The position numbers were made by a program, and so were the translations under genes. The notes beneath the pieces were generated by a model. It was not told the origin of the DNA, searched no databases, and saw only the letters and a list, made by a program, of their open reading frames with translations. Shown in pieces: positions 16,592 to 51,293 of a stretch of 64,000 nucleotides of DNA (within the stretch, counting starts at the first letter, position 1; every line of letters starts with the position of its first letter). The stretch is taken from assembly GCA_028288925.1 (NCBI GenBank), contig JAQGHG010000012.1, positions 13,762-77,761 on the forward strand, given 5' to 3'. The DNA comes from Patescibacteria group bacterium. GTDB lineage: Bacteria; Patescibacteriota; Saccharimonadia; UBA4664.

Positions 16592-17470
16592 TTACAGGCG
16601 CTTAAATGACCGCCCGTCCAGTACGATCTCCGAGTGAGGCGGCAGGTTTAGTACCCGCTCGTCGCTCTCGATACCGAGGAACGGATGATCCCGCTCGACG
16701 ACAAACCCGATCCCTTGGTACGCGAACGGCGAGGCCGAAGGGTCGTCTCCGTAGCAATCGTCGACGTCGGTCCATCCCTCGAGCTCCGCGCAGACTTGGG
16801 GGTACAGTGCGACATCGCGGACGATCTCGCACTCGAGGCGCGGGTCGTTTACGATGGGGCGCTCGACAGTGACGGAGGCGAGGAGAACCGGCTGGTTGTG
16901 TCGGAACTCGATGCTTCCATCGGCCGGATATGCCCGGTTCTTGAGCCACGAGACCGTCCAGCTCTGCCTGGGAGTGGCCCAGATCTCGTAGATGGAGAGG
17001 TTCGCTCCCGGAACGTCGCTGTAGAGCGATTTCGTGCGCCTGTTACTCACTTCGATCGTCTCCAGCCGACCGAAGAACGGCGACTGATTGACGGCCGAGG
17101 CGATCAACGCGACGGTGCCCATCCAGCCCGAGTGCATGACCTGCTCGCTTCCTCGTTTCCCGCCTTGCGGGTTGAGAGGGTCGCGAAAGGTCAGACAGAC
17201 CGAGCGGATGAAGTTGCCATCCATGAGCTCGAAGCTCGCGAGCGGCCGCAGGCCCTTGACGGCCGAGCGGAGGTACAGGTACAGCCCTGTAGTGGGGTAG
17301 TACACCGTACTGCGGGGCGGGTCCAACGCGACGAAGTCGCGCTTGCCCTTGAACTGCCCGATTTCGTGGAGTAGAGCCACGACTCGGCAGAATGACCGAC
17401 GTTCTATGGCCCCGAAATAGGGATCGGTCGCTACGTGCGGCCAGATCCACGGGGGCAGCGCAGAAGACAC
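16592..17470 (-). CDS. Hypothetical protein (ORFan)
   Basis: 292-aa ORF, GTG start with AGGAGG RBS; no recognisable motif. Confidence 0.6.
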   Translation of the reverse strand: MSSALPPWIWPHVATDPYFGAIERRSFCRVVALLHEIGQFKGKRDFVALDPPRSTVYYPTTGLYLYLRSAVKGLRPLASFELMDGNFIRSVCLTFRDPLNPQGGKRGSEQVMHSGWMGTVALIASAVNQSPFFGRLETIEVSNRRTKSLYSDVPGANLSIYEIWATPRQSWTVSWLKNRAYPADGSIEFRHNQPVLLASVTVERPIVNDPRLECEIVRDVALYPQVCAELEGWTDVDDCYGDDPSASPFAYQGIGFVVERDHPFLGIESDERVLNLPPHSEIVLDGRSFKRL

Positions 17471-17598
17471 GGGTCCTCCTGGGAGATTGAACGTACACCA
17501 CGACGAGTGTCGCAGATTTCTTAACTATAACATAAATGCTAGAATTATACAATCTTATGGCGCCCTACCCTCTATGTTTTCAAAATGCAGCCCAAACC

Positions 17599-17724
17599 TA
17601 CGGGTGGCAGCCCAGGAATATCTCCCCGAGGAAGCGAGTGCGGGTACTGATACCGGTAACACCGAAGAGAAGGATAGCGTTCGCTCGCCCGAGGGGAGGT
17701 ATTCCTGGGCTGACAGGACCCGTA
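17599..17724 (+). repeat. Structured intergenic repeat, full-length copy A (126 nt)
   Basis: TACGGGTGGCAG...CTGACAGGACCCGTA; long terminal stem; same length as and alignable to 57865-57990. Confidence 0.85.
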
Positions 17725-17738
17725 TCCCGAGCGCGGCG

Positions 17739-19484
17739 TTATTCCTTCACCCGTCCATCCGCCAGACACCGCGCATCCGCCGGCTTCCCACTCAGCCGCC
17801 CGGTGATGTCCACAAACGTCATTGGGTTCTCGCGCCCGTCGGCATAGGCGTAGTAGCAATCGGGCAGGTAGGGGAGACTGGTCCCGAAGTAACTGTTGAG
17901 CACCAGCCGAAACACGTTCGCCGAGTCCGCCGCGCCCGCGTCCTTGCTCCAGTCTACCGCCGGAATATGATAGGCCGCCAGATTCCCAAACTTCATTTGC
18001 AGGTCGGCGTCCGTCCATTTGCGCATATCACCGGCCCGTAGCTCACCCTCTACTCTGTCGACGTCGAATTGCTCATGGTTGAGCTGCATTGGGTAGGGCC
18101 CCTCGTCTGCCTGCAGCACCACTATTGATTTGCCCTGGCCGGAGCGGTCAATCTCGCTTAGGATGTCCTTCATTTGGCTATTAATGAACTGCACCTGGCC
18201 CAGATACTTCTGCTTGATCGGCTTGCCGTTATTATCATCACCCGGGTTGGCCGAGACCGAGCCGTCGGCGTTAAAGTTGTAGGGATCGTGCGGCACCAAG
18301 ATATGCGCGAATACAAACCGCCCACCCGCCGGCTTGGCTGCTTCTTGCCGGAGTGTTTGGAGTTGGTAATGGGCCATATCCACGTCGCCCATATTGGCGT
18401 AGCTAAAAGCCGTAAACCCGCCCAGGCCCAGACCCGGCTGCACAAACCGCCACCAGGGGCTCTCGGTCAAAATATTCTTCGAGAAGTTATTCAAAATTAC
18501 ATCAGCATTCATAATGGTCATCCGCCCTGTGCCCTGGTACACCCGGTCGGCCACATCTGACTTATTGGAGGTCTCGTACCAGTTGCCGATCATATCGTAT
18601 GAGTAACCCAGCGATTTCAGCTTTTGGGCGATGGCCGAATTGCGGATGGTCTCATTAAACGGCACAATTGTCTGCCGCGGCGAGGTCCCAAACCGCCCGA
18701 CCAGATCGTTCAAATAATCGGCGTTCATGGTAGAGGCAATCGACATCGTGGTGTAGGGGTAATTATTATGCGCCGACGGGTTCACATAGTAATCCCGGTC
18801 TTTTAAGAAATTCAAGAAGTCCGAATTATCAAAATGAAACTGTTGATTCAGCACGTCCTCGCTGGCGTAGCGGTCAAGCACGATGTAATAAATATCCGGC
18901 GAATCAGCCATCGTCGGCTTGGCGGTAGCCTGGGCCGCGATGTGCGGCGGCTTGTAGAAAAACTGCGGCCATTCCACGGCCAGATCCCACGCTAGCGGGA
19001 CGGCCTTAAAGCCAAACGTCGCGACAATCATAATGAGCAGCGCGATCTGGACATCGCGCTGTTTGCCGACCCAGCGCCGCGCCGCGCCGGCCGCCACCCG
19101 GCCCAACCAGTAGGCGCCAATGCAGGTGAGGCCGATCATCAGCAGGCTGCCTACCACGCCTACCATTCCCACGGGTTCCTTGGGTAAGAAGAGCCAGCCA
19201 TGAATCCACTGGTAGACCGTGTCGAAACGATCGTCGTACTCACCCGAAAGCACCAAGGCTACAAGCACCGCCGCTACGTAACCGCCGAGCTGGTCCCGGC
19301 GCCACACACGGTAAAACCCGGCGCTGATAGCCGTGGCCGTAAGCAGAGTCAAAATTACAGGCACCACCAGGTCTTGGGCGGTTACTTGGTAGCGGTTGCC
19401 CAAGAATGTCGAGATAGGCGACAGCAGCGCCACCATCGCCACCGGCGCCCACAGCTTTAGGCCGGCTGGGAGTCTAAACTTCAT
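17739..19484 (-). CDS. Membrane sulfatase/alkaline-phosphatase-fold protein (NoeB/LtaS-like)
   Basis: 5 N-terminal TM helices; PDIYYIVLD, NYPYTTMS, HILVPHDPY, LQADEG. Confidence 0.78.
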   Translation of the reverse strand: MKFRLPAGLKLWAPVAMVALLSPISTFLGNRYQVTAQDLVVPVILTLLTATAISAGFYRVWRRDQLGGYVAAVLVALVLSGEYDDRFDTVYQWIHGWLFLPKEPVGMVGVVGSLLMIGLTCIGAYWLGRVAAGAARRWVGKQRDVQIALLIMIVATFGFKAVPLAWDLAVEWPQFFYKPPHIAAQATAKPTMADSPDIYYIVLDRYASEDVLNQQFHFDNSDFLNFLKDRDYYVNPSAHNNYPYTTMSIASTMNADYLNDLVGRFGTSPRQTIVPFNETIRNSAIAQKLKSLGYSYDMIGNWYETSNKSDVADRVYQGTGRMTIMNADVILNNFSKNILTESPWWRFVQPGLGLGGFTAFSYANMGDVDMAHYQLQTLRQEAAKPAGGRFVFAHILVPHDPYNFNADGSVSANPGDDNNGKPIKQKYLGQVQFINSQMKDILSEIDRSGQGKSIVVLQADEGPYPMQLNHEQFDVDRVEGELRAGDMRKWTDADLQMKFGNLAAYHIPAVDWSKDAGAADSANVFRLVLNSYFGTSLPYLPDCYYAYADGRENPMTFVDITGRLSGKPADARCLADGRVKE

Positions 19485-20865
19485 CGCGCTTACGGCGCAT
19501 CAAATACAGCATGCGCGCCGAACCGGTCACGGCCTGTTTCCGCACAATCTCGAAATACCGGCCAAACGCCGCTTCGAAGCCTTCCGGGGTGTAGTCCGGG
19601 AAGATATCCTCGCGCGTCGCCAGTAGCCGTTGCACCTGCGAGTCCGACTTGGGCACAAACTCGATCACCAAGTGCGGCGCCAGGCTCGCGAAATACTCGG
19701 CCACATGCCCCAAGGGGACATTACTCGCGATTGCCAAGTGGTGGATGAGCGCCAACGCCAGCGCCGCGTCAGCCTTGGCCCGCGCCGAAAAACTCTGCCG
19801 CTCATGGTTGGCCCAGCCCAGCGCCGGGCTCGGGTTCGTCAGATCCACCAGCAGCGGAATCAGTTTGGTCTCGTGGCGGGCCTTCATTTGTAAATAATTG
19901 CTCTCCACCGCCAATGGATCGATATCCGAGCTCATCACGAGCGCGCCCTGGCCGGCCGCGATCCGGCTGAATGAGCCGTCGTTCGCGCCCAAGTCGAGCA
20001 CTCGTTTGGGCTTTACCTGAGCCAAAAAGTCACTCACGAGCGAGCGCTTCTGATCCAGCGACGAGTCGCTGTAGTTGGTGTTGTCATAATAATCCCCCCA
20101 CTCCGTCTTGGTCTTGGGCAGCTTGAGCGCCTTCACCGTTCGCTCAAGACTGTCTATCAGGCCCTGGAGTGAAGTGACGTTCATCGCCGCTTTGGGCTTC
20201 TCGGCGGTGCCTTCGTGCTGGCGCTGAAACTTGGCGTGCAAGCTGATATGCGTGGCCATGCCGAAGTTGAGCCGGTCCTTGAGCGGCAGTAGCCTGGCCG
20301 CCAATGGCAAAGGAATGCCGTCGATATGCACCTGCAAGAGCCGCGAAAGTCCCAGATCGACCCGGCTCATCAGCGCTAACGGCGCCAAAAAGTGCTGACA
20401 AAACTGCCGGTAGGCCACCCACGGCTCGCCTTCGCGGTACGGCTCAAATGATAGCGTATCGATGAATACCGGCCGCCCTTCCGCGAACTGGATGTTATAG
20501 GCGCTGGCGTCCCGCAGACTCATGCCGTGCTTCATGGCCAGTTTCTGGATCCGGAGCGTGGTCAGCGCCGCGTCCTTGAGCTGCGAAAATGCCCATTCGT
20601 AGGGATACGTCACCCAGTCCAATAGCTCCGGCTTCAACACTACCACGGCGCCGTCGCCCGCGGGCTCTCCGGCCTCCTCGTGCTTCACCAGTAGGCCGCG
20701 CTGTGTCAGCGCTTCGTACAGGCCGCCCGTCATGAGCTTCCGGTAAGCCTCCCCACCCGCTTCGTTTACCTGGCGGTAAATCTGGCCGTTCTTCCAAAAC
20801 ACAAAGCCCCAGTCATCCCGAAACGATGAACTGTCGCGACCGCCCGCCGGGCTATTCAATGTCAT
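19474..20865 (-). CDS. NoeA-like protein: kinase-like N-terminal domain plus class I SAM methyltransferase
   Basis: SFRD, YPYEW, LRDASAYNIQF, FIDTLSF; C-terminal VLDLGANDG, LALIHHL. Confidence 0.82.
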   Translation of the reverse strand: MTLNSPAGGRDSSSFRDDWGFVFWKNGQIYRQVNEAGGEAYRKLMTGGLYEALTQRGLLVKHEEAGEPAGDGAVVVLKPELLDWVTYPYEWAFSQLKDAALTTLRIQKLAMKHGMSLRDASAYNIQFAEGRPVFIDTLSFEPYREGEPWVAYRQFCQHFLAPLALMSRVDLGLSRLLQVHIDGIPLPLAARLLPLKDRLNFGMATHISLHAKFQRQHEGTAEKPKAAMNVTSLQGLIDSLERTVKALKLPKTKTEWGDYYDNTNYSDSSLDQKRSLVSDFLAQVKPKRVLDLGANDGSFSRIAAGQGALVMSSDIDPLAVESNYLQMKARHETKLIPLLVDLTNPSPALGWANHERQSFSARAKADAALALALIHHLAIASNVPLGHVAEYFASLAPHLVIEFVPKSDSQVQRLLATREDIFPDYTPEGFEAAFGRYFEIVRKQAVTGSARMLYLMRRKRDEV

Positions 20866-21529: not shown

Positions 21530-21931
21530 GTGTCAAAAATCCTTATCATCGAAGACGATGCCTTGCTCTCCCGCATGTATCAAACCATCTTCAAAACAAC
21601 CGGGTACGAGGTAGATGTCGCGGTCGACGGCGAAGAAGGTCTGGAGAAGACGCGAAAGTTTAACCCCACACTCATCCTTCTCGACATCATGATGCCCAAG
21701 CTCAACGGCTTGGAGGTGCTGGAACGCCTTAAATCTGATCCCGAACTCAAAAAAATCCCGGTGGTCATTCTTACCAACCTAGCCGGCAACAACGATGTCC
21801 AAACCGCTCTCAAACTCGGCGCTGTTCGCTACATCATCAAGAGTGAAAACCGGCCTAAGCAAGTCGAGGAGATTGTGCGCGGCATCCTGGACGGTTACAG
21901 TCGCGGGGACGTACCCCACGCCGCCCAGTAG
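21530..21931 (+). CDS. Single-domain response regulator (REC only)
   Basis: ILIIEDD, LLDIMMP, LTN, YIIKS. Confidence 0.92.
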   Translation: MSKILIIEDDALLSRMYQTIFKTTGYEVDVAVDGEEGLEKTRKFNPTLILLDIMMPKLNGLEVLERLKSDPELKKIPVVILTNLAGNNDVQTALKLGAVRYIIKSENRPKQVEEIVRGILDGYSRGDVPHAAQ

Positions 21932-22028
21932 CTTTCCCTTGCAAATAGTCGCTCCGCCAAGTAAAATTTCCCTTTGAAAGTAACTGCCCTCTTGTAGTGG
22001 TGTTTCCAGCGGACAAGAGAAGGGGAAG

Positions 22029-22754
22029 ATGCTAGACGATAAGGCCCTCTGGCGGGCGTATTCCAAAGTCTACGATGAGCTGCTCAAAGTAATTCCGTAC
22101 CGAAACCTACTGCTCGAAGTCGTTGATCGCGCCAAAATTACTCATAACTCTACCGTTCTCGACGTTTGCAGCGGAACGGGCAATCTTCTGTGGGCGCTCG
22201 ACCAGCGGGGAATAAAATGCCGGGTAACCGGCCTAGACTATTCCAAGCCGATGCTTGCCATCGCCGCCGGCAAAATCCAGACATTCGGCGCTACCGCCGA
22301 CTTTCGCCAAGTAGACGTGAATGAGCCTCTAAGCTCCCGAAAGATCCCGGAGAAGTTCGACCGGATCATCCTTAATAATTGTCTTTTTATCGTTGATAAG
22401 CCCGCCGGCCTCCTGGCCAACCTAGCAAACGTGGGACAGCCCGGAGCAGTCCTGGTGGCGACACTGCCCCGGCCGAACCCCAGCGTTCATGAAATCCTCG
22501 AGGAACACCTCTGGCTGGCCGAGGCCGGCGGGCAAAAGCGCGAGGCGGCCCTGCAATACCTCATGCCCCTCCTTCAGCCCCTCTTCAAAATCAACAAAAC
22601 CCTGCTCGAGCGCTACGGCGCGAACGGGCACTTCCCCAGCGAGACCGGCCTTCGCGAGTGGTTCAGCCAGTCCGGCTGGGAAATAAAAGAACTCCGCACC
22701 ACCTACGCCAACCAAAACTGGCTAATTATAGCCGAGAAGCCCACAACGTCTTAA
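22029..22754 (+). CDS. Class I SAM-dependent methyltransferase
   Basis: VLDVCSGTG, TGLDYSKPML, FDRII. Confidence 0.88.
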   Translation: MLDDKALWRAYSKVYDELLKVIPYRNLLLEVVDRAKITHNSTVLDVCSGTGNLLWALDQRGIKCRVTGLDYSKPMLAIAAGKIQTFGATADFRQVDVNEPLSSRKIPEKFDRIILNNCLFIVDKPAGLLANLANVGQPGAVLVATLPRPNPSVHEILEEHLWLAEAGGQKREAALQYLMPLLQPLFKINKTLLERYGANGHFPSETGLREWFSQSGWEIKELRTTYANQNWLIIAEKPTTS

Positions 22755-22815
22755 AATAAAAGTGGCAGAAAACGTTTCTGCTGGTTGACATCAAAGATGG
22801 ACTGGGAGGGATGCC

Positions 22816-23553
22816 ATGATCACCCGCGGCGTCGACACCACCACAGCCACCGAGGCAGAGACCTGGGCTGGCTACGCGCAAGAGTATTCCAAGCTCAGGT
22901 CGCTCGATCCGTACATGATGCACGCCAGCCAGGTAGTCGACATGGCGTGCATCGAGGAAACGAGCCGGGTCCTCATCCCGTTCTGTGGCGGAGGTATCGA
23001 ACTCGACACGCTACAGAGGCGCGGGTTCAGACCCCGCGACGTGATCGGCCTGGACGGCTCGCGGCCCATGCTGAGCCTGGTCGGCTCGGATTACGGCTTC
23101 CCCGTGGAGCTCATTCAGGCCGACCTCAACGAGCCGCACGCCAAGTGGGGCATCAGGTGCGAGCCCGATCGCTTCATCTGTAGCAATGGCCTCTACGCTC
23201 TCAGGGATCCCGCGGCCTTCCTGGGAAGGCTGGCCGCACTGGCGGCGCCCGGCGCCATCCTGGTAGTGTCGACACCCAAGCCCGACCCCGACCCCTTCGC
23301 TGTGCTCAGGGAGCACCTGGATGGGGTGAGGCTCAGAGGCGGCGACCCCGACGCCGAAAAGGCGCGCCTGCTGGACCTTTTCGGCGCGGTCCTCGCCTGG
23401 AACGAGCGTCTCCGGGAGCTGTACGGGCTCGGATATCAGCCCGACAAGGATGAACTCTACCGGCTGTTCGACGCCTCGCCCTGGGAGATCCAGTGGTACA
23501 GCGAGGCCTACGCCGGCCAGAACCACGCCATCAGGGCCGTACTCCAAACGTAG
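22816..23553 (+). CDS. Class I SAM-dependent methyltransferase, paralogue of the upstream gene
   Basis: LIPFCGGG, IGLDGSRPML, QADLNEP, PGAILVVSTP, YAGQN; GGGAGG RBS. Confidence 0.78.
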   Translation: MITRGVDTTTATEAETWAGYAQEYSKLRSLDPYMMHASQVVDMACIEETSRVLIPFCGGGIELDTLQRRGFRPRDVIGLDGSRPMLSLVGSDYGFPVELIQADLNEPHAKWGIRCEPDRFICSNGLYALRDPAAFLGRLAALAAPGAILVVSTPKPDPDPFAVLREHLDGVRLRGGDPDAEKARLLDLFGAVLAWNERLRELYGLGYQPDKDELYRLFDASPWEIQWYSEAYAGQNHAIRAVLQT

Positions 23554-23575
23554 CCCGAAAAGAGGCATCAGTAAG

Positions 23576-24328
23576 ATGAGCAAGAAGATCCGGATCCTGA
23601 AGGGTTATGGGGCTAAAAAGACAAGCCTCAAGATCCGCCACGAGATCTTCTGCGTGGGTCACGATGGTCTTCCGCCTCTGATGGAATGCCCCGTGCCCGG
23701 TACACCCGGCGCTCCCCATGATCCCTTCGACCGCCCCACCGGCACGAGTTTCTACGCCGCTATATGCGGCGCACAGGGACTGGCCACGGCGCGAGTGATC
23801 CGCGGCCCCGACACACCGGTCTCTGAGGTGTATCGCAAGCTGGGCCTGAGTCCACCCGTTCCCTTCGACGAAGTAGAAGAGCCCTCGAAGTATGGGGTAA
23901 ACCCGGACATCGAAGACAAGCGGCTGAGCCGGGAGGGCTTCCTCCGGCTGGTCGGCGCTACCTTGGTGGACGCCCAGTGCAAGTGGTGGGTCATCGCAGC
24001 GCTGCCTGGTCTGGCGTACTCCCTCAGCTGGATGCCGTGGGAGATCCACGCAACCATCAACTGGCCGGCTCCGGCTGGAGGACCGCAGCAGCTCAGTCCG
24101 GTTTTCTTGCTCCACCTGCCCATCTGGGAAGTTGGGCCCGCTACCAAGATTCTCAAACCCGAGCTCTACGACCTGATGTTCCCCAACGGGGAGCCGCAGG
24201 TCGGCGGAGGCAGGGTCAGGCCGGAGGAGGAGCTCGCCGAGCTGAGGGCTCACAACCTTCACAGGCTCAAGGTCGACTTGGCCGCCTGGAAGGCAGACAC
24301 GCTCAACGCACCGAGAGTTCCTGCTTAG
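23576..24328 (+). CDS. LuxI/FeeM-like (N-acyl amino acid synthase) GNAT-fold acyltransferase
   Basis: IRHEIF, DPFD, ATARVI and EPSKYGV in the order of the RxxxF / DxxD / R / ExSR motifs; C-terminal PELYDLMF. Confidence 0.65.
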   Translation: MSKKIRILKGYGAKKTSLKIRHEIFCVGHDGLPPLMECPVPGTPGAPHDPFDRPTGTSFYAAICGAQGLATARVIRGPDTPVSEVYRKLGLSPPVPFDEVEEPSKYGVNPDIEDKRLSREGFLRLVGATLVDAQCKWWVIAALPGLAYSLSWMPWEIHATINWPAPAGGPQQLSPVFLLHLPIWEVGPATKILKPELYDLMFPNGEPQVGGGRVRPEEELAELRAHNLHRLKVDLAAWKADTLNAPRVPA

Positions 24329-24347
24329 GCGGGCTTAGTGGCCCACA

Positions 24348-24378
24348 GAGGCCGCCGGGAGCACTCCCCGGCGGCCTC
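24348..24378. terminator. GC-rich hairpin between the enzyme cassette and the kinase
   Basis: GAGGCCGCCGGG-N7-CCCGGCGGCCTC; no U-tract on the + strand. Confidence 0.45.
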
Positions 24379-24416
24379 AAAACCCCGTTTAGGCCCATGA
24401 TATAGTAACCACAAGC

Positions 24417-26579
24417 ATGATGTATTACTTAGCTCTCTTATCGCTAATGATTGTCGTCACCGCCGACGCCCTCCTGGGACTTGTCGTATGGCTGCAGGCC
24501 CCGCGCCGCCGGTTAAACCGCATATTTGCCCTCCTCACCGCCTCCTTTATGCTCTGGAGCGCGACCAGCTTCTATGATCAGACCGCGGCCGGACCCGAGA
24601 AGCTATCCCTCCTGATGGCCAATATTCCTTTTGTATTCGCGGCCTCCATCTCACTCTTTATGGTTTTATTCTCGCTCTACTTTCCGGAAAACCATCCGAG
24701 CTCCAACATCACCAGGACAAGAGTCACCTGGGGCCTGGCCTTCACTACACCGCCGCTCCTTGTCATGGCCTTTACTAACCTTCTGGTGTCGGGCACCACT
24801 AGCTCGCCCACGCTAGGCAACAACATTGTCCCTGGACCGCTACTGGGTGTATTCTCAATCTATTTCTTGGGCTGGTTAGGATTCGCGTTAGGCAATCTCT
24901 TCTACAAATTTCGTAAAGCCCGAAGTTCGGCCGATCGTTTGCAGCTCAACTATGTCTTTCTGGGCTTCATGCTTACCACGGTCATAGCGTTCACCACCAA
25001 TGTAATCGTTCCTGTGGCCACGCGTAACCCGACTCTAGTACGCTTCGGATTCCTCTCTACGCTCTTTCTCATTGGCTTCATCGGGTATACCATCGCCGCT
25101 CACCGGCTCTTTAATATCCGGCTGTTGGTAGCCCGCTCGGTAGCCTACATTCTCTTGCTCTCCACGCTCACCGCCGTTTACGGTACGGGAATATTTGCGG
25201 TCAGCCGGCTCCTGTTCCCCGATACTGCCATTACCACCGTGGAAAGCAGCCTGTTTGTGGCTCTGGCTATCCTCATCGCCATCACTTACCAGCCGCTACG
25301 CCGGTTCTTCGAAAAAACCACCGACCGCGCGTTCTTCCGCGACCATTACGATGCCCAAATTGTGCTCGACCAGACCGGCAGCATTTTAGCCTCCGAGCTA
25401 TTATTGAAACCCCTGCTCTCCAAGGCTCTTGAGCAAATCTGCCGGCCCATGCGCCTAAGGAACGGACAATTCCTCGTGCTTGACCACGACAAGCTCTACA
25501 CGCGAACCCATTACGGTCCATTGCTCAAGGACGACGTCACGACCGAGCTCATGCAGCGCCTCAAGCAGCCGCTCATCGTCACCGACGAGCTCCAGCCGGG
25601 AGAGCTCAAGGATGCCCTGGGGCGCCTGGGTATCCGCGTCTCGCTGGTGCTCAAGACTCACGATGAACTAGTCGGATATCTATTTCTGGGGGACAAACTC
25701 AGTGGGGAAATCTATTCAAACCAAGATTTGGCCTTGCTCGAAATCCTCCGCAAAGAGCTGGCCGTAGCTATCGCCAATGCCAAAGCTTACGAGGAAATCG
25801 CCCGCTTCAATATGACACTCCAAGAACGTATCAAGCAGGCTACGGCCCGCCTCAGCTCGGCCAACCGCAACCTCAAGGTGCTCGACAAAGCCAAAGACGA
25901 CTTCATCTCCATGGCCTCGCACCAGCTGGGCACGCCGCTGACCGCCATCACCGGTTACCTCTCCATGTCTCTCGACGAAGACAAAGACAATATGACCATT
26001 GCCCAGCGCGAGTACATCACCTTCGCGCTCGAGGCTTCCGAGCGGATGGTGGCCATGTCCGGTGATCTCCTAAATGTATCGCGCCTGAGCTCCGGCCGCT
26101 TCACGATACAGCGCCAACAAGTCGACTTGAACCATCTGGCCGAGCAAGAGGTAAAACTACTTCAGGCGGCGGCCAAGCGCAAAAACCTCACCCTCACCTT
26201 TACCCCCAGCCCCGGCCTCCCCCAGCTCGACATCGACGAGAGCAAGACTCGCCAGGTCATCATGAATTACGTCGACAATGCCATTTATTACACGCCCAGC
26301 GGCAGCATTCACGTAGAGGTGAAGCAAGAAAACGGCTGGGCCGTCTTTACCGTCACCGACACCGGTATGGGCGTGCCGGAGGCCGAACAGGCCAAGCTGT
26401 TTGCCAAGTTCTACCGCGCCGAAAACGCCCGGGCCTCCCGCCCCGACGGCACCGGCCTCGGCCTCTACCTGGCCAAACGCGTTATCGAGGAGCACGGCGG
26501 CGCCATTATCTTCGCCTCCAAAGCCGGCAAGGGGAGTACCTTCGGTTTTAGCCTACCGCTCAAGGCCAACGCCCCGTAG
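24417..26579 (+). CDS. HisKA_7TM-type membrane sensor, GAF domain and histidine kinase
   Basis: Multi-TM N-terminus, HRLFNI, GYLFLGDKLSGEIYS (GAF), ASHQLGTPL, DNAIYY, DGTGLGL. Confidence 0.92.
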   Translation: MMYYLALLSLMIVVTADALLGLVVWLQAPRRRLNRIFALLTASFMLWSATSFYDQTAAGPEKLSLLMANIPFVFAASISLFMVLFSLYFPENHPSSNITRTRVTWGLAFTTPPLLVMAFTNLLVSGTTSSPTLGNNIVPGPLLGVFSIYFLGWLGFALGNLFYKFRKARSSADRLQLNYVFLGFMLTTVIAFTTNVIVPVATRNPTLVRFGFLSTLFLIGFIGYTIAAHRLFNIRLLVARSVAYILLLSTLTAVYGTGIFAVSRLLFPDTAITTVESSLFVALAILIAITYQPLRRFFEKTTDRAFFRDHYDAQIVLDQTGSILASELLLKPLLSKALEQICRPMRLRNGQFLVLDHDKLYTRTHYGPLLKDDVTTELMQRLKQPLIVTDELQPGELKDALGRLGIRVSLVLKTHDELVGYLFLGDKLSGEIYSNQDLALLEILRKELAVAIANAKAYEEIARFNMTLQERIKQATARLSSANRNLKVLDKAKDDFISMASHQLGTPLTAITGYLSMSLDEDKDNMTIAQREYITFALEASERMVAMSGDLLNVSRLSSGRFTIQRQQVDLNHLAEQEVKLLQAAAKRKNLTLTFTPSPGLPQLDIDESKTRQVIMNYVDNAIYYTPSGSIHVEVKQENGWAVFTVTDTGMGVPEAEQAKLFAKFYRAENARASRPDGTGLGLYLAKRVIEEHGGAIIFASKAGKGSTFGFSLPLKANAP

Positions 26580-27655: not shown

Positions 27656-28522
27656 TTATGGCAATAATATATCAATCGAAATCATCGCGCTGAACCCGAG
27701 CAGTACGATCAGCGAAAACCGAAAGAGCCCCCGCGCCCACACCGCGTCGTCCTTGGCGCGGAAGCCTTTTATGGCTCGCTGTAGCCACATCGCACTCAGC
27801 ACCAGCATTACCGCCAGGTAGGTATAGCCGGTGTAGCCGGCCACCGTCAGCGCCGCCACCGCCGCCATGAAGGCCACGATATACACCAAGATCTGAATCT
27901 TCGCGGCGCGCGGGCCGTACTTCACCGGCAGCACCGGCAAGCCCGCCGCCGTGTAATCCTTGAGCCGGTACATGGCGATGGCGTAGAAATGCGGCATCTG
28001 CCACAGGGTCAAAATCACAAACAAGAGCAGCGCGCCGCCGTCAAACTGGCCCGTCACCGCGCAGTAGCCCACCACCGGCGGCACCGCGCCCGAGATGCTG
28101 CCCACCAGCGTCCCGTGCACCGAACGGCGCTTAGCCAGGCCGTAGAGGACCACGTACACCACGAACCCCACCAGCGCCACACCCACCGTCAGCATATTCG
28201 TCCATAGCGCCAACAACCCAAAACCCAGCAAGCCCAGCACGCTCGCGTAAATCAAAGCATTACGCCCCGGGATCGAACCCTTCGCCAGCGACCGGTCCTT
28301 GGTCCGGGCCATCTTCCGGTCCAGGCCCCGGTCAATGTAATTATTAAAGACACATGCCCCGGCCATCACCAGCGATATACCCGCCAACATGCCCACCAAT
28401 AGCCCCGCGCTAATATGCCCGCGCGAAGCCAACAAAAACCCGGCCGCCGCCGTAATGGCATTGCCGTAAATAATCCCCGGCTTGGTCAGCCGGTAGTACC
28501 GTTGGATTGTCTTAGGGATCAC
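27656..28522 (-). CDS. cyoE: Heme O synthase (protoheme IX farnesyltransferase)
   Basis: LTKPGI, NNYIDRGLDRKMART, WQMPHFYAI. Confidence 0.95.
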   Translation of the reverse strand: MIPKTIQRYYRLTKPGIIYGNAITAAAGFLLASRGHISAGLLVGMLAGISLVMAGACVFNNYIDRGLDRKMARTKDRSLAKGSIPGRNALIYASVLGLLGFGLLALWTNMLTVGVALVGFVVYVVLYGLAKRRSVHGTLVGSISGAVPPVVGYCAVTGQFDGGALLLFVILTLWQMPHFYAIAMYRLKDYTAAGLPVLPVKYGPRAAKIQILVYIVAFMAAVAALTVAGYTGYTYLAVMLVLSAMWLQRAIKGFRAKDDAVWARGLFRFSLIVLLGFSAMISIDILLP

Positions 28523-28884
28523 TTATGCACACCCTCGTCCTTAATGATGAACGTATCAGTCTTATCCGGCGACATCATGTGGTAGTCCAAATTCTTCATG
28601 ATCCACAGTGAGCCGCCCACCACGATCGTCACCACCATCAGCGCGAACAAAAACACCGTCAGATTCCAGCGCGGCTTCGACTCCCGGCCCAGATGCAGGA
28701 AGAAAAACAATTGCACCATCAGCTGGATTACCGCCAGACCCACCACCGCCCCGATCAGCACGCGGTGCGACAGCCAGGGGTGTTCACCGGGAAGGTGCTG
28801 CGCCACAACAAAATATGCCCCCAGCGTCAGCAGTACCGACAAGACAAACCCCACCACATACGAAGTCCGCGTGCCCGTGTTCAT
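28519..28884 (-). CDS. cyoD: Cytochrome o ubiquinol oxidase subunit IV
   Basis: [30 protein letters not shown]; ATGA overlap with cyoC. Confidence 0.93.
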
Positions 28885-29450
28885 ACCTGTATTGCTCCCA
28901 TCAAGTACACAATTGTGAAGATAAAGATCCAGATGACATCCAGGAAGTGCCAAAACAAGCTCAGCAATGTCAGCCGCCGGACCGTAGCGGTCCCCAGGCC
29001 GCGGCGCAGCACCTGGATCATCAGCACGGTCATCCATAGCAGGCCGGTAGCGATATGCAGACCGTGCGTGCCCACCAGCGTAAAGAACGCCGAGAGGAAT
29101 CCGCTGCGTTGCCAGCTATTGCCCTCGGCAGCCAGGTGGGAGAATTCCGTGATCTCCATGGTGAGGAACGCGACGCCCAGCAAGAACGTCAGGCTGAGCC
29201 ACGTCAGCACTTGGTTGCGCTTGCCTTGGTGGGTGGCCAGTATCGCCAGGCCGGCGGTGAAGCTGCTGGTGAGCAGGATCAGCGTCTCGGCCAGTACAAA
29301 CGGCATGCTGAACAGCTCATGAGCGCCCGGTCCGCCAAACGTGTTGTTGTGCAATACCGCGTAAGTCGCGAAGAGGCTCGCGAACAATACGCAGTCGGTC
29401 ATAAGATATATCCAGAAACCCAGTGTTACTTTTGAATCTGGCTCTGTCAC
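28881..29450 (-). CDS. cyoC: Cytochrome o ubiquinol oxidase subunit III
   Basis: [27 protein letters not shown]. Confidence 0.95.
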
Positions 29451-31441
29451 GCGGCTTCCTCCACCTTAGCGGCGGGGATCGTATATTCACTGTCGTCCGT
29501 GGAAGTCCGAATGATGATAGTGGCGATCACCCCCAATAGTCCCACCACTGCCAACCACCAAATGTGCCAGATCACGGCGAACCCAAGGACAAACGCGAAA
29601 CCGGCCAAGATAATACCCATCGCCGAATTCTTGGGCAGCGCGATGTCGGTATAATGCGGTTTTCGCCCTCCCGAAGCCTTCTTTTGTTTACTTGCCCAAA
29701 ACGCGTCCCGCTCAGTCACGGCGTCCAGCGTGGCGAAGTTGTACACCGGCGGCGGAGAAGTAGTAGACCACTCCAGTGTCCGCCCGCCCCACGGGTCGCC
29801 GGTCATGTCCAGGTTCTCCTTGCGTCTCCATACGCTCACGATCATTTGCAAAATCTGGAACCCGATACCGAGGCCGATCACACACACTCCCACGCCCGCC
29901 ACGATAAATAGTCCCCGCCAGCCCGTAGACGGCTCATAGTGGTCCAGCCGCCGCGTCGCGCCCATCATTCCTAGGATATACAACGGTACGAACGCCAGCA
30001 AAAACCCGGTCAGCCAGCACCAAAAGGCGTACCGGCCCAGCCGCTCATTGAGCCGGAAGCCAAAAATCTTGGGGAACCAGTAAGTGATCCCGGCGAACAG
30101 CCCAAATATCACGCCGCCGACGATCATGGTATGAAAGTGCGCCACCAAGAACAGACTATTATGCAGCTGGAAGTCCACCGACGGTACCGCCATCAACACG
30201 CCGGCCATGCCCCCAAGGGTAAACGTCACTACGAAGCCCAAAAACCACAGCATCGGCGTGGTAAAACGGATTCGCCCCCGGTACATCGTAAACAGCCAGT
30301 TAAACACCTTCACGCCTGTCGGAATCGCGATTACCATCGTCATAATGCCGAAGAAGGCGTTCACATTGGCCCCGGCGCCCATCGTGAAGAAGTGGTGCAG
30401 CCAGACCAAGAACGACAAAAAGGTAATCGAACCCAGCGCCCACACCATCGACTTGTAGCCAAACAGCCGCTTGCTCGAGAACGTCGCTACCACCTCCGAA
30501 AACACCCCAAAGGCTGGCAAAATCAGAATGTAGACCTCCGGGTGCCCCCACGCCCAGATCAAGTTGACGTACATCATAGGATTGCCCCCGAAGCCGGAGG
30601 TGAAGAAGTGCATCCCCAGAGTCCGGTCCAGCGCCAGCATCGCCAGCGTAGCCGTCAAGATCGGGAAAGCAAAGACCACCAGCACCATGGCGTTGAGCAC
30701 CGACCACACAAACATCGGCATCTTCATCATGGTCATGCCCGGCCGCCGCAGCTTCAGGATCGTCACCAGGAAATTGACACCCGAGAGCAAGCTTCCCACG
30801 CCCGCGATCTGTAGACTCCAGATCCAATAATCCACCCCCACACCGGGGCTATACCGCAGCTCCGATAGCGGCGGGTACGCCAGCCAGCCGGTGGCCGCGA
30901 ATTCACCCACCACCAGTGACACATTCATGAGCACGGCACCCGCGACGTACAGCCAAAAACTAGCCGAGTTCATAAAAGGGAACGCCACATCCCGGGCGCC
31001 GATCTGTAGCGGCACCACCAGGTTGATCAGGCCAAACATCAGCCCCATCGCCACGAAGAAAATCATAATCGTGCCGTGCGCCGAGAAAACCTGCTGGAAC
31101 GTATCGGCCGACAGCACGCCGTGAGACTGGCCCACCGATAACACCTGCTGCGCCCGCATCATGGCGGCATCGGTCGCGCCGCGCAGCAGCATCAAGAACG
31201 CCACGGCGATGTACATCACACCGATCTTCTTGGGGTCGAGCGAGGTCAGCCACTCACGCCACAGCCACTTCGCGCGGCCCAGGATCCAGCCCCAGCGCTT
31301 GAAGTATGTGAGGGCCGCCACCGCCAGCAAACCACCCAGAGCCCCCATTACGGCGGTCGCGAGCAGCATCACGCCGGTAAAACCGTCATGTTTCAGCGCG
31401 TTAAGCGTCAATAAGCCCAGTGCGTTGCCAAGAAAGATCAT
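29447..31441 (-). CDS. cyoB: Cytochrome o ubiquinol oxidase subunit I
   Basis: [28 protein letters not shown] heme/CuB ligands. Confidence 0.96.
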
Positions 31442-32316
31442 CGCGTTACCATTCCGGGCATCGGCGTCATATAATTCATCACCACCTCATCATACAGACC
31501 TTCGGTTACGAATGAGTAATAGCTGGGCGGATTATTTTGGCTAGGCTTGGCCAAAGCCTGGTACGCGCCGTGGTCCAGATGGTGGGGCGACCGCTCGACC
31601 GACTTCGTCCAAACATCAAATTCGGCCCGTGGCACCGACTTGGCCGTAAACTTCATCCCCGCGAACCCCGCCCCGCTCAAGTTGGCCGACGAGCCGTCAA
31701 AGCTGCCGGGGGAGTCTGCCATCAGGTGCAGGTGAGTCGTCATGCCGCTCATCGCATAAATCTGGCCGCCCAGCTGGGGAATCCAAAATGAGTTCATCGG
31801 CGCGTCAGACGTGATCTCAAAATTAACCGGCGTACCCTCGGGAAACTCCACCATGTTCACGCTCGCGATATGCTGCTCCGGATAAATAAACAGCCATTTC
31901 CACTGCAGCGCCACTACCTGGATCGTTATGGGCTTCTTGTCGGACGCCAGAGGTTTGTAGGGGTCCAGCTCGTGGGAACTTTGCCAAGTAATGACCGCTA
32001 GCCCCACGATAATGGCGGTAGGAACGGCCCACCAAGTAAATTCCAGAACCCGGTGGTGGTCCCAGTCCGGCGCGTACTTCGCCTTAGTGTTACCGGCCCG
32101 GTACCGCCAAGAAATCACGAATGTCAGGATGAACACCGGGATCACCACGATCAGCATCAGCAGTGTGGCGGTTATCATGAGGCTACGCTCTTTGAAGGCT
32201 ATCAGGCCACGTGGATTAAGCACGGCTATGTCGTGGCCGTGCAGCAACTTCACGAGTAACACCGCCACTCCGAGACCGAGCAGAATCACAAGACCAAGCT
32301 TGAGCAATTTATTCAT
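31438..32316 (-). CDS. cyoA: Cytochrome o ubiquinol oxidase subunit II
   Basis: [36 protein letters not shown]; no CuA motif. Confidence 0.95.
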
Positions 32317-32370
32317 CAGATAAGGCAAGGGTGGACGTTAAGGATCATCACACTTATGATTATATCTGAC

Positions 32371-33573
32371 ATGACTCCCAACTCACAGCGAAAAGCCCAT
32401 GTACTCGTTATCGGCGGGGGATTTGGTGGTATCCGGGCCGCCCAAAAGCTCGCCCGGCAGCGAGGCGTGAGCGTTACGCTCATCTCCGCCGAAGACAGCT
32501 TCGCCTACTACCCGCAGTTGTACCACGCGGCCACCGGCGGTGTGCACACCGAGTCGGCTATTTCGCTGACCGAGTTGCTGGGTGGCCGCGGCATCGAGGT
32601 GGTGCGCGACACCATTACGGCGCTCGATCCCGAAGCCCGCACCGTCACCGGCGCCGGCGGCGAAGCCTACCATTATGATGAGCTTATCCTGGCGCTCGGC
32701 AGCGTCACCAATTACTTCGGTATCGATGGTCTCGAAAAATTCGCCTACAACATCAAATCCATTGATGGGGCCGAGCGCTTCAAACAGCACTTGCACAAAC
32801 AGCTCGTGGAAGACCACCAGGCCGACCCCAACTATGTCGTGGTAGGCGGCGGTCCCACCGGCGTCGAGCTGGCAGCCGCTCTGGGCCAATACCTACGGCG
32901 CATCATCAAGCTGCACGGACTGGCCAAGCCCAATTTTCAGATTGAACTCATCGAAGCCGCCCCGCGCCTACTACCGCGCTCGCCCGAATCGATGAGTGCC
33001 CGGGTACAGCGCCGCCTCGAAAGCCTGGGCGTGAAGGTCATGACGGGCGCCACCGTCCAGGCCGAGACCGCCGGCGCTCTCCAGGTCAACGGCCGGCCCA
33101 TCAATACCCATACCGTCGTCTGGACCGCTGGAGTAGCCAATAATCCCTTCTTCAAAGCCAACGCCGCCCACTTCAAACTCGCCAAAAATGGCAAAGCCGA
33201 GGTCGACAACCACCTCCAAAGCCAACCCCACATCTACGTGATCGGCGACAACGCCGCCACACCCTACACCGGCATGGCCCAGACCGCCCTCAACGACGCC
33301 GATTACGTCGCCGCCGACATCGTCCGCGCCCTCCACGGCCACGACCGCCCGGCCTACCATCCCGCGGCGCCCATCAGCGTCATCCCGGTGGGGGAAAACT
33401 GGGCCGCAGCGGAATGGGGGCGCGTCTTGCTCTACGGCTACATCGGCTACGTCCTGCGCCGCTTCGCCGACCTCATCGGCTACGCCGACGTCGAAAGCTG
33501 GCCCCGAGCCTTCAAGATTTGGATCCAAGACACCCGCCGCGAAGACAACTGCCTGATCTGCGAACCCAAATAG
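32371..33573 (+). CDS. ndh: Type II NADH dehydrogenase-like flavoprotein
   Basis: GGGFGG, GGGPTGVELA, WTAGV, IYVIGD; divergent from cyoA. Confidence 0.88.
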   Translation: MTPNSQRKAHVLVIGGGFGGIRAAQKLARQRGVSVTLISAEDSFAYYPQLYHAATGGVHTESAISLTELLGGRGIEVVRDTITALDPEARTVTGAGGEAYHYDELILALGSVTNYFGIDGLEKFAYNIKSIDGAERFKQHLHKQLVEDHQADPNYVVVGGGPTGVELAAALGQYLRRIIKLHGLAKPNFQIELIEAAPRLLPRSPESMSARVQRRLESLGVKVMTGATVQAETAGALQVNGRPINTHTVVWTAGVANNPFFKANAAHFKLAKNGKAEVDNHLQSQPHIYVIGDNAATPYTGMAQTALNDADYVAADIVRALHGHDRPAYHPAAPISVIPVGENWAAAEWGRVLLYGYIGYVLRRFADLIGYADVESWPRAFKIWIQDTRREDNCLICEPK

Positions 33574-44061: not shown

Positions 44062-44451
44062 TTAACTCGCGCTCTTCGCCAACAGCGCCTTCACCCGCTC
44101 GGCCACCTGCTTCGGTGTCATCTCGGCCTTCACGATGTAGTCGTCGGCGGCCATCTTGTAGACCTTGGTAGCGGTTTCGGTGTCGCCCATGTTAGTCAGC
44201 ACCACCACTTTGGCATCGCGCCCGGCCGGCTGGCTGCGCAGGCGCTGGAGCATGTCCAGGCCGTTCATATTTGGCATCATTAAATCTAGCAAAATAATAT
44301 CGGGCGTATACGTGTCTATTAATTCTAGCCCGCTCACACCATCCGGAGCGGTCGCTACATCGTAGCCCTCGTTCTCAAACTTGGTCCGATACATTTGTAC
44401 GATCGCGATATCATCTTCGATGATGGCGACTTTGACTTTTTTAGTGCTCAT
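44062..44451 (-). CDS. Single-domain response regulator (REC only)
   Basis: AIIEDD, LLDLMMP, LTN, DYIVKA. Confidence 0.92.
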   Translation of the reverse strand: MSTKKVKVAIIEDDIAIVQMYRTKFENEGYDVATAPDGVSGLELIDTYTPDIILLDLMMPNMNGLDMLQRLRSQPAGRDAKVVVLTNMGDTETATKVYKMAADDYIVKAEMTPKQVAERVKALLAKSAS

Positions 44452-44729
44452 GCTCCAAGTATAGACACGAGTTTCCAGATAGCGCAAGCATATATTGTGA
44501 GTCATGCTCTGTAATTATCAGGTACATGAGTGAGTATTCAGATCCGAGTTCAAAATGTCAAGAATGTTCGACAATAGTGGGGTCATTATCGTCAAAAAGC
44601 TCGGCAATCCCGAACGATTGCTTATCGCGTCCCATCTTCAACAGCACAGAATTGTACCGCAGTACTTTCCAAATATTCTCTTCGGTTAGCTCCGATATTC
44701 CTCGAGATCGTTCACATCCACCTTGCGAC

Positions 44730-45845
44730 CTACTCTGCGAACTCTTTCATCATGGTGCGTAAAATCTTGAGTCCCTTCACTAGGGTAGTGTGCTTGGTAG
44801 CAAAAGCAATGCGGATGTAATCCTGACGTTTCGAGAAAGCCCGCGACGGCAGCACAATTAGGCTGCGCTTGGCCGCTTCCTCGCAAAACTCCAAATCCGT
44901 CATCCCGGACGGTAGCTGCACAAACGCGTAAAAAGCGCCGTGGGAGCCATAGATATCGAACATCGGCTCTAGATAGCGCAGTACCATATCGCGCTTCGCC
45001 CGATATTTTTTAATCAGACGCTGCGGGCTATGGGACAGCGCCGCCAGAGCCGCTTTCTCGGCAATCGAAGAATTGGAGAACACCACATACTGCTGTAGTT
45101 GATTAACCGCCTGGATAAACTCTTCGGGCCCGGCCAAGTAACCCACCCGCCAGCCCGTCATAGCATATGCCTTGGAAAACCCATTAAGCGTAACCGTGTT
45201 TTTATATACGCTTCCAATACTGAAATGCGGGGTGTTATAGGAGAAATACTCGTAAATCTCGTCAGACAAAATGGTGATATTGTGCTCTTTGGCCATTCGG
45301 GCGATTCGGCGCAACTCACGCTCCGGATAAACCGCCCCCGAGGGATTGTTAGGAGAATTAATTAGCAAGACCTTGGTCTTGGGTGTAATATGCTGCTCCA
45401 CCAATCGGGCCGTTAGCTGAAAACTTGGGTACGTATCAATCGCCACCGGCACCGCGCCGAGCATCCGCGCCAGATCAAAATAGGGAGGGAAATACGGATC
45501 AGGTATTAGAACCTCATCACCCGGGTCAAGCAAAGCTAGATAACTCAGCAAAATTCCGGTAGTAACACCAGGCGTTACCGTTACCAGATCTGGCGTTACT
45601 TTAATTTTATTTTCGCGGGTAAGCTTCTCCGCTATTGCCGCGCGGAGCTCAAAGATGCCGTTAGAGGGTGTATAACGGGTAAAATCCTGGGAAATTGCCC
45701 GAATCCCGGCGGCCTTAATATAGTCCGGAGTCGCATCTTCGGGAAATCCAATGCTTAAGTCGATAGGGTCGGGAATTTCACGCACCCGGCTAAATGCTTT
45801 ACGTATATGGCTACTATCGAATTGGGCGATGCGCTTGGCGATCAT
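44730..45845 (-). CDS. PLP-dependent aminotransferase class I/II
   Basis: NSPNNPSG, SDEIY, GFSKAYAMTGWRVG. Confidence 0.93.
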   Translation of the reverse strand: MIAKRIAQFDSSHIRKAFSRVREIPDPIDLSIGFPEDATPDYIKAAGIRAISQDFTRYTPSNGIFELRAAIAEKLTRENKIKVTPDLVTVTPGVTTGILLSYLALLDPGDEVLIPDPYFPPYFDLARMLGAVPVAIDTYPSFQLTARLVEQHITPKTKVLLINSPNNPSGAVYPERELRRIARMAKEHNITILSDEIYEYFSYNTPHFSIGSVYKNTVTLNGFSKAYAMTGWRVGYLAGPEEFIQAVNQLQQYVVFSNSSIAEKAALAALSHSPQRLIKKYRAKRDMVLRYLEPMFDIYGSHGAFYAFVQLPSGMTDLEFCEEAAKRSLIVLPSRAFSKRQDYIRIAFATKHTTLVKGLKILRTMMKEFAE

Positions 45846-45965
45846 TCATTTACTATAGCCTAATTTCCAGACCCGAACCAAGCGTCTATTCGCGGTATGT
45901 GGGAGATAATCTAACTTATTAGGCTATTTTTTGTTATTATGCCTATTGTAATAGCCATACTATAA

Positions 45966-48679: not shown

Positions 48680-48739
48680 TTCCCATGCTGCCCCCTGATA
48701 GCGCTTCTGCTATAGTTAAAGCATAAGCAAGTTGTGAGC

Positions 48740-50902: not shown

Positions 50903-51293
50903 TAACAAACTCATCCTCATCGCCGAAGACGATCCGTTCATCTCGCGCATGTACCAGATCAAGCTCGAAAGCGGCGGCTACCGCGTGATCGTCAAGAATA
51001 ATGGCCGCGATGCCTTCGAAGCCATCAAGGGCGAGCACCCGGATCTGGCCGTCCTCGACATCAACATGCCTGAGCTTTCGGGCCTAGAAGTGCTGGCCGC
51101 GCTCCAAACTGACGGGTTCGACTTCGATTCCATGCCCGTCATCGTACTCACCAACTCCTCCGAGCTGTCCGATCGCAACAAGGCCCATTCCTTCGGCGCC
51201 GAATACCTGGTGAAGGCCGAGCTCACCCCGCGCGAGGTCCTCAACCTCATCGGCGCCAAGCTTAACCCCGCTCCCGAAGCCGAAAATGCCTAA
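50883..51293 (+). CDS. Single-domain response regulator (REC only)
   Basis: LIAEDD, VLDINMP, LTNS, EYLVKA; overlaps the kinase stop. Confidence 0.92.
   Translation: MADPKPDNKLILIAEDDPFISRMYQIKLESGGYRVIVKNNGRDAFEAIKGEHPDLAVLDINMPELSGLEVLAALQTDGFDFDSMPVIVLTNSSELSDRNKAHSFGAEYLVKAELTPREVLNLIGAKLNPAPEAENA

Follow-up and report, generated by a model that had tools for sequence, protein, structure and literature searches.

Co-variation of a seven-helix kinase sensor domain with an adjacent acyltransferase-methyltransferase cassette in Saccharimonadia: a candidate locus for making and sensing a chemical signal

Introduction

In the Candidate Phyla Radiation (CPR), 18 pairs of a LuxI homologue and a kinase, two of them in Saccharibacteria, have been put forward as candidate quorum-sensing systems by Bernard et al. 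2020 (PMC7567580). Acyl amino acids and oxazolones are the demonstrated or proposed products of FeeM-like enzymes whose partner is a ThiF protein, a nitroreductase or a methyltransferase (PMC10404671, PMC12856293, PMC12479983). Clusters of a synthase plus a methyltransferase have been proposed for the stieleriacines (PMC12479983), and trzAS adjoins genes of cyclic di-GMP signaling (PMC12856293). Here we analysed a locus at positions 21530..26579 of a 64,000-nucleotide stretch of DNA (the window) from a Patescibacteria group bacterium of the class Saccharimonadia. The locus consists of a stand-alone receiver, two methyltransferases (MT1 and MT2), a divergent acyltransferase (below also called the synthase) and a membrane kinase with a seven-helix sensor domain, HisKA_7TM (7TM). 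It is of the predicted CPR synthase-kinase type, and the general idea that such a locus both makes and senses a signal is already in print as a prediction (PMC7567580). No ligand for HisKA_7TM is given in the accessible parts of the literature that names the domain. For episymbiotic Saccharibacteria the choice to attach to, divide on or leave the host is an open question, on which the locus may bear.

Results

The sensor domain of the kinase changes together with the enzymes encoded in front of it. The kinase gene (24417-26579, plus strand) matches HisKA_7TM (PF16927) with 50.5 bits against a curated cut-off of 28.6, and this domain, at about residues 1-232 (24417..25112), is the part that tracks the class of the enzyme cassette. 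The remainder (25113..26579), which holds two more transmembrane helices, a GAF-like region, HisKA with the H-box SHQLGTP and the HATPase, does not track it. The comparison covered the 87 of 109 kinases that had a class, with 20 unassigned and two edge rows excluded and L184 relabelled by its nearest gene. In FastTree trees of these 87 rows the 7TM domain needed 13 changes of class, compared to 41 for GAF and 44 for the kinase core, and shuffled class labels needed about 46 on average and 39-41 at the minimum (200 shuffles). At matched core identity, pairs of the same class had a higher 7TM identity but were no more alike in GAF or in the next two helices. Across 45 loci the partial correlation between synthase and 7TM identity, with core and GAF removed, was r 0.52 (standard deviation of the null 0.044), while synthase identity was not correlated with GAF (0.02) and only weakly with the core (0.19, p 0.003); the pairs behind these co-variation statistics are not independent.

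Individual comparisons follow the same pattern. The 7TM domain of our locus is 55% and 54% identical to those of G015 and G013, which have cassettes of methyltransferase and FeeM-like genes (core 73% and 71%), and 24%, 27% and 27% identical to those of G012, G023 and G002, which have other cassettes (core 72%, 68% and 66%). It falls in a clade (SH-aLRT 98) of five rows, in all of which a methyltransferase gene precedes a FeeM-like gene. Between two genomes of the same genus, the kinases are 87% identical in GAF and core and 21% in 7TM, and the synthases differ. When the topology was derived from hydropathy and the positive-inside rule (K/R 29% inside, 4.5% outside), an outward orientation was obtained for 21 of the 25 7TM positions with the highest class specificity (in our kinase S51-Q55, P71 and N135), in a test whose nine groups were chosen after seeing the tree and left out some rows. 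These sequence comparisons provide evidence that the 7TM sensor and the enzyme cassette may form an exchangeable matched unit across Saccharimonadia. As the 7TM domain changes with the enzyme set across relatives, the unit likely makes and detects a small chemical signal.

HisKA_7TM matches were found in 189 of 251 genomes of the class, 169 of them above the cut-off. A search that started from the synthase gave 37 matches in 34 of 401 class genomes; 34 of the 37 preceded a co-oriented 7TM kinase at a distance of at most two genes and one lay at a contig end, the profile having been seeded from kinase neighbours and being biased toward kinase-linked subfamilies. Outside the class, all ten synthase matches (121 genomes of the phylum) were also upstream of a 7TM kinase. 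The adjacency of enzyme and kinase, on which the original prediction depended, is thus conserved in other genomes. The sample that started from the kinase comprised 60 loci hand-picked from the 150 listed of 241 matches, with four dropped for another architecture. A recognisable cassette class was present in 37 of the remaining 56 loci, 18 had unassigned genes (four of these with weak methyltransferase matches) and one was at an edge. The classes were FeeM-like with methyltransferase, ThiF or decarboxylase; PaaK-like ligase with Rv1355c-like ThiF and nitroreductase; LPG-synthase-like; SCO2522-like; and two GNAT-like groups, one recognised on a single weak Pfam match and one by eye. Partners in the slot are biosynthetic in type and include ThiF/Rv1355c-like proteins, nitroreductases, amino-acid decarboxylases, PaaK-like ligases and aminotransferases. 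The slot upstream of the kinase is hypervariable.

All five genes of our locus are co-oriented open reading frames (ORFs), as shown by ORF calls and by reading the sequence, and the original prediction of enzymes bracketed by a receiver and a membrane kinase holds at these coordinates. The locus belongs to the small genome of a soil bacterium (1.22 Mb, 92% complete), with the window on contig C19. The earlier assignment to a probable Saccharibacterium is likely correct, as a protein labelled Candidatus Saccharimonas falls into one 90% cluster with the synthase of a relative from the same family. High-identity contigs from four soil runs of one study span parts of the locus.

The acyltransferase (23576..24328, plus strand) has 250 amino acids and contains the motifs IRHEIF, DPFD, ATARVI and EPSKY, all of which had been read from it before. 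The protein itself gave no match in Pfam, including PF00765 (Autoind_synth), or in NCBIfam, and a phmmer search among 2324 candidates returned only the protein. An in-frame start further upstream, at 23450, was rejected, as it overlaps MT2 and the homologues start near 23576. Homologues in relatives are a 31% identical orthologue in G015 and proteins of 25-31% identity in G009 and G006. The protein is also homologous (E 1e-11) to the C-terminal half of a methyltransferase-FeeM fusion in G013, and this half passes the Pfam FeeM model (PF21926; 33.4 against a cut-off of 27). A profile of six sequences brought in two further proteins, and by protein language-model features the nearest clusters were FeeM, Acetyltransf_5 and Autoind_synth (0.94-0.95). 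In the family of 39 sequences, FeeM was matched at E<=0.001 by 20 members, Acetyltransf_5 by 13 and Autoind_synth by four (best 8e-5), and the family alignment had synthases of acyl-homoserine lactone (AHL) as its top matches in the PDB, with RpaI at 2e-11 and BjaI at 5e-11.

An AlphaFold model built from the alignment of 39 sequences reached a pLDDT of 91 and a pTM of 0.88, and was used in place of a single-sequence model (pLDDT 31), which was discarded. Foldseek ranked MesI, BjaI, TofI, LasI and FeeM first with this model. The structural alignment gave Z 14.5 for both FeeM (2g0b) and TofI, 14.1 for RpaI and 14.0 for LasI, with generic GNATs at 13.8 and lower, so that the top rows are closely spaced. 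The predicted LuxI/FeeM-type GNAT fold is therefore borne out by the model. The LuxI/FeeM catalytic scaffold, mapped through the TofI and LasI alignments, is kept in R21, F25, D49, D52, R73, E102 and S104; in the family D49 is conserved in 33, R73 in 38, E102 in 35 and S104 in 31 of the 39 sequences. The active site of LuxI includes Trp33-35 and Arg104 (PMC9654057; PMC7567580). In the 23576 protein the segment from F25 to D49 lacks a Trp, and K105 occupies the position of Arg104. On the basis of the model, the protein is a LuxI/FeeM-superfamily acyltransferase. As the Trp is absent and Lys stands in for Arg, an N-acyl amino acid or amine is a likelier product than an AHL, and these residues suggest that the enzyme more likely acts on a free amine than makes AHL.

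MT1 (22029..22754, plus strand) belongs to a cassette-specific family and has a helical lid; MT2 (22816..23553, plus strand) is its paralogue, with 35% identity over 229 residues. Both are class I S-adenosylmethionine (SAM) methyltransferases by Pfam, in agreement with the two methyltransferases predicted earlier. Rossmann motif I is clear in MT1, which has the features of class I. In MT2, which matches Methyltransf_23 with 31 against a cut-off of 27, motif I is degenerate (LIPFCGGG) and the acidic SAM-binding residue after strand 2 is kept. Profile searches of the PDB with the methyltransferases gave generic SAM cores and no specific relative, a search for related loci with MT1 alone gave only 3 + 3 generic methyltransferases, and an exact scan of metagenome contigs with the MT1-MT2 spacer gave 0 matches. 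The GC content is 66% in MT2 (97th percentile of the genes of the genome), 63% in the synthase and 57% in MT1 and the kinase. In codon usage MT2 and the synthase are unremarkable (68th and 39th percentile), and a high GC content with ordinary codon usage gives by composition alone no proof of a recent foreign origin of these two genes.

The receiver (21530..21931, plus strand) matches Response_reg with E 1e-25, lacks an output domain in Pfam, as expected for the receiver-only regulator described before, and has D9/D10, D52, T82 and K104 intact. Receivers 60-79% identical to it were found at only five of 83 kinase loci, with differing cassettes. Four of them adjoin kinases with a core identity of 0.65-0.72, and the fifth (L039) adjoins a second match, of the kinase core only, at 70%. 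As similar receivers lie beside close kinase cores despite the differing cassettes, receiver and core appear to be what stays constant. By these sequence relationships the receiver is likely the cognate partner of the 24417 kinase.

The kinase further matches HisKA and HATPase_c in Pfam. Of its earlier description as a 7TM-GAF kinase the 7TM part stands, and the GAF part has only a weak match (GAF_2, E 0.2). Between synthase and kinase, a GC hairpin with a 12-bp stem (24348..24378, plus strand) forms the apparent right edge of an exchangeable MT2-synthase segment; its 101-nt region has a z of -4.09, and 0 of 200 shuffles were as good. We rejected the hairpin as a classical intrinsic terminator, as it is followed by A4 and not by a U-tract and was not called by the terminator scan. 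An extended -10-like box, TG-n-TATAGT (24398..24406, plus strand), was read from the sequence as a putative separate promoter, with TATAGT 10 nt before the ATG of the kinase; the promoter scan made no call there. Hairpin and box, from which a separate transcription of the kinase had been suggested, are thus both present, the former not as a terminator, and a separate kinase promoter is plausible from the sequence.

The genome encodes MetK. A LuxR-type helix-turn-helix (HTH) domain (PF00196) was not found in the 92%-complete genome, in agreement with the absence of LuxR noted earlier, and the control search matched in 12 of 14 genomes. An OmpR DNA-binding domain is present in two of the 14 receivers of the genome and lacking in 12. 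Since both the LuxR-type HTH and, in these 12 receivers, the OmpR domain are missing, the output is probably not direct transcription. In this genome (G000), signaling mostly ends in stand-alone receivers. Domains resembling the acyl carrier protein (ACP) occurred in 3 of 41 genomes, in a search that included our own.

Other versions of the arrangement were observed. A second module of the same kind is located at 44062-51293 of the window and comprises a receiver and an aminotransferase dependent on pyridoxal phosphate (PLP) on the minus strand, a PaaK-like ligase (45966-47516; weak NCBIfam match), an Rv1355c/ThiF-like adenylyltransferase (47501-48679) and a HisKA_7TM kinase (48734-50902), followed by a receiver. 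The 7TM domain of this kinase clusters with those of other PaaK-cassette kinases and is 22% identical to that of our locus. At L033:7486-9554 (G015) and L076:11156-13187 (G020) the alleles are longer, as a HisC-like PLP enzyme and one more methyltransferase, the third, precede the cassette. Stand-alone LPG_synthase_C-like proteins occupy the slot in 10 of the 56 kinase loci (L149, L152, L154, L157, L169 and others), often near arginine- or LysA-type decarboxylases and in several cases inverted, a hint that cells without ACP may draw on aminoacyl-tRNA as a donor. A third kinase, with a core 66% identical and a different and shorter membrane sensor, was seen at L001:4650-9471 (G000:C5) and L039:451-5148 (G007). 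Its neighbours resemble, by eye, a polyprenyl synthase and a terpene-cyclase-like protein, and in G007 a similar terpene-type set sits after a 79% orthologue of the 21530 receiver. This is possibly a terpenoid version of the module.

Next to the locus, the window holds ORFs at 27656-33573 which we take, by eye, to be a cytochrome bo3 oxidase operon (minus strand) and an NADH dehydrogenase II; such ORFs also occur near the type-A kinase in several relatives. Divergent genes at 16592-20865 (minus strand) encode a 463-amino-acid protein with a methyltransferase domain, a membrane protein of the sulfatase family and a 292-amino-acid ORF without a Pfam match. In those loci of relatives that were inspected, none of these divergent genes adjoined the kinase.

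Discussion

From the sequence relationships described above we consider, with a probability of roughly 0.55, that the locus makes an acylated and methylated amine or amino acid signal that is read by the 7TM domain of the adjacent kinase. The 23576 enzyme would transfer an acyl group, probably from a host-derived acyl-coenzyme A (acyl-CoA), onto an amino acid or amine, and MT1 and MT2 would add one or two methylations to the product or its precursor. The released product would bind the seven-helix domain in a predicted pocket on the outer face, upon which the kinase would pass phosphate to the stand-alone receiver. We infer the product class, the acyl donor, the binding of the ligand, the cognate receiver and the meaning of the cue, which may be density, kin or host feeding. 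We propose a widespread module of enzyme cassette plus sensor which can be swapped on a conserved kinase core and receiver, and of which the locus is one allele.

Several observations weigh against this reading. ACP (PF00550), ketoacyl synthase, AMP-binding ligase and the E2 of 2-oxoacid dehydrogenase were not found in the 92%-complete genome, and the CoaE match was below the cut-off. As no ACP or fatty-acid synthase was found, the acyl donor is probably host-derived; its likely source is either uptake from the host or synthesis by the PaaK-like enzyme at 45966. The FeeM-like fold is able to use acyl-CoA in TyzA and TrzA (PMC10404671, PMC12856293). No DNA-binding output or feedback loop is evident. 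Triplets of MT1, MT2 and synthase occur in G009 and G006 without a 7TM kinase in the fetched 19-kb stretches, and the sole HisKA_7TM match in each of these two genomes belongs to another class. The triplet of G009 (L073:9433-12403) is located between a MarR gene and an MFS transporter, and that of G006 (L074:8193-11957) has MT2 split into two ORFs and is followed by a PALP enzyme. Of two contigs from soil run X2, one is about 99% identical through MT1 and the spacer to 22813 and then unlike, and the other, not bridged to the first, is unlike at its start, joins at 24348 and is about 99% identical through 7TM. These edges match those of the GC-rich MT2-synthase segment (22814-24347), and one of the X2 contigs leaves the window sequence into an ORF starting MSRVFWW, like other methyltransferases of the MT1/MT2 family. 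The X2 strain thus seems, from these contigs, to have replaced MT2 and synthase and kept the sensor. By this pattern, an exchange of enzymes within a class may leave the sensor in place. This suggests that what the sensor recognises is a head group common to several products and not a single defined molecule. Further, synthases of the same class are only 18-28% identical to the 23576 protein, and linkage alone can also move neighbouring DNA together, without functional coupling.

It is unlikely, in our view, that the kinase detects a foreign molecule of a host or competitor which the three enzymes acylate and methylate, and thereby inactivate or convert. Such a role would likewise predict co-variation of sensor and cassette and an outward pocket, GNATs and methyltransferases are often detoxifying, and the G009 triplet lies between MarR and an MFS transporter. 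However, the nearest folds are synthases, the decarboxylase, ThiF and ligase partners suit the building of molecules, and the receiver lacks the DNA-binding domain for enzyme induction. We regard it as quite unlikely that the compound is aimed at the host or neighbours while the 7TM domain senses another cue and travels along by crossovers in the conserved flanks. The triplets without kinase in G009 and G006, the apparent exchange of MT2 and synthase without the sensor and a possible promoter of the kinase's own would all fit such passive linkage, but the match of sensor and cassette persists from family to family and between deep 7TM clades, it weakens where the 7TM domain ends, the next two helices not tracking the cassette, and the class-specific residues are concentrated on one face.

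The remaining alternatives concern the product. Acetyltransf_5, matched by 13 of the 39 family members, is to our understanding the OlsB family, and an OlsB-like enzyme could make a methylated amino-acid lipid from host acyl chains that the kinase monitors in the membrane. Many sister loci have a divergently oriented gene for a PlsC-family acyltransferase, and in others the slot is occupied by LPG-synthase-like domains, as such a lipid would suggest; our locus has no PlsC, the PlsC homologue of the genome lies on another contig, and the rapid swapping of unrelated chemistries would suit identity signals better than structural lipids. This makes the lipid improbable, if anything a shade more so than passive linkage. 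A true AHL circuit, with AHL made from SAM and acyl- or aroyl-CoA and read by the kinase in place of LuxR, appears very unlikely, although the family profiles match the CoA-type AHL synthases RpaI and BjaI first, Foldseek puts MesI and BjaI first and MetK is present. The Trp of LuxI is lacking and Lys replaces Arg104, Autoind_synth is matched by four members compared to 20 for FeeM, FeeM ties for the best Z, and AHL would need no methyltransferases.

If the locus indeed makes and senses its own signal, a broader interpretation is conceivable, which we hold only tentatively and rate below even odds: phylum-wide private chemical languages, in which a conserved core and receiver accept modules of a synthase cassette with its own 7TM receptor, and the signal is made from host-supplied acyl donors. 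As the cells lack acyl carriers and fatty-acid synthesis, a signal made only from host-supplied donors would report kin feeding on a host, and not density alone. If true, a first class of ligands would be known for the HisKA_7TM domain. Matched classes of cassette and sensor could be used to assign HisKA_7TM ligands and may reveal new acyl-amine metabolites of uncultured bacteria.

As in the CPR pairs of Bernard et al., a LuxI-like gene adjoins a membrane kinase, which was proposed to be a complete quorum-sensing system; in those pairs the product was called AHL and the kinases were typed by CqsS or QseC models (PMC7567580). The accessible part of that account mentions no HisKA_7TM, methyltransferases, variable slot or co-variation of sensor and cassette (PMC7567580), and, unlike those LuxI homologues, the 23576 protein itself matches no Pfam model. 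We found no published account of the variable slot or of the co-variation, in a search on which subscription journals and the rest of Table S4 of PMC7567580 may bear. FeeM (2g0b) has the same fold as the 23576 model, with Z 14.5, a root-mean-square deviation of 3.0 Å, 175 aligned residues and 13% identity, and the likeness to tyz and trz extends to sister loci that carry ThiF and nitroreductase. The accessible parts of the reports on FeeM, NasY, TyzA and TrzA describe no receptor for the products (PMC10404671, PMC12856293, PMC12479983); unlike these systems, our locus combines a pair of methyltransferases with a co-varying kinase, and neither ACP nor fatty-acid synthase was detected in the cell. 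The LuxI AHL synthases TofI (3p2h), LasI (1ro5), RpaI (6wn0) and BjaI (5w8a) have the fold and the R/F/D/D/R/E/S scaffold in common with the 23576 protein, which differs from them in the missing Trp, in Lys for Arg and in a genome in which no LuxR-type HTH was found.

In the staphylococcal agr and streptococcal com systems a hypervariable block spans the signal genes and the membrane sensor domain, while the kinase core is conserved; their signals are peptides of one chemistry and their regulators bind DNA. Unlike in agr and com, whole enzyme families are swapped here and the receiver stands alone. The N-acyl-cyclolysine system of Bacteroidota likewise has two enzymes beside the receptor and a density signal derived from an acyl amino acid, whereas its receptor is a LuxR-family repressor and not a membrane kinase (PMC13080023). 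To these systems our comparison of sequences adds evidence for a 7TM domain and cassette that appear to be exchanged as a matched unit, with the same adjacency elsewhere in the phylum.

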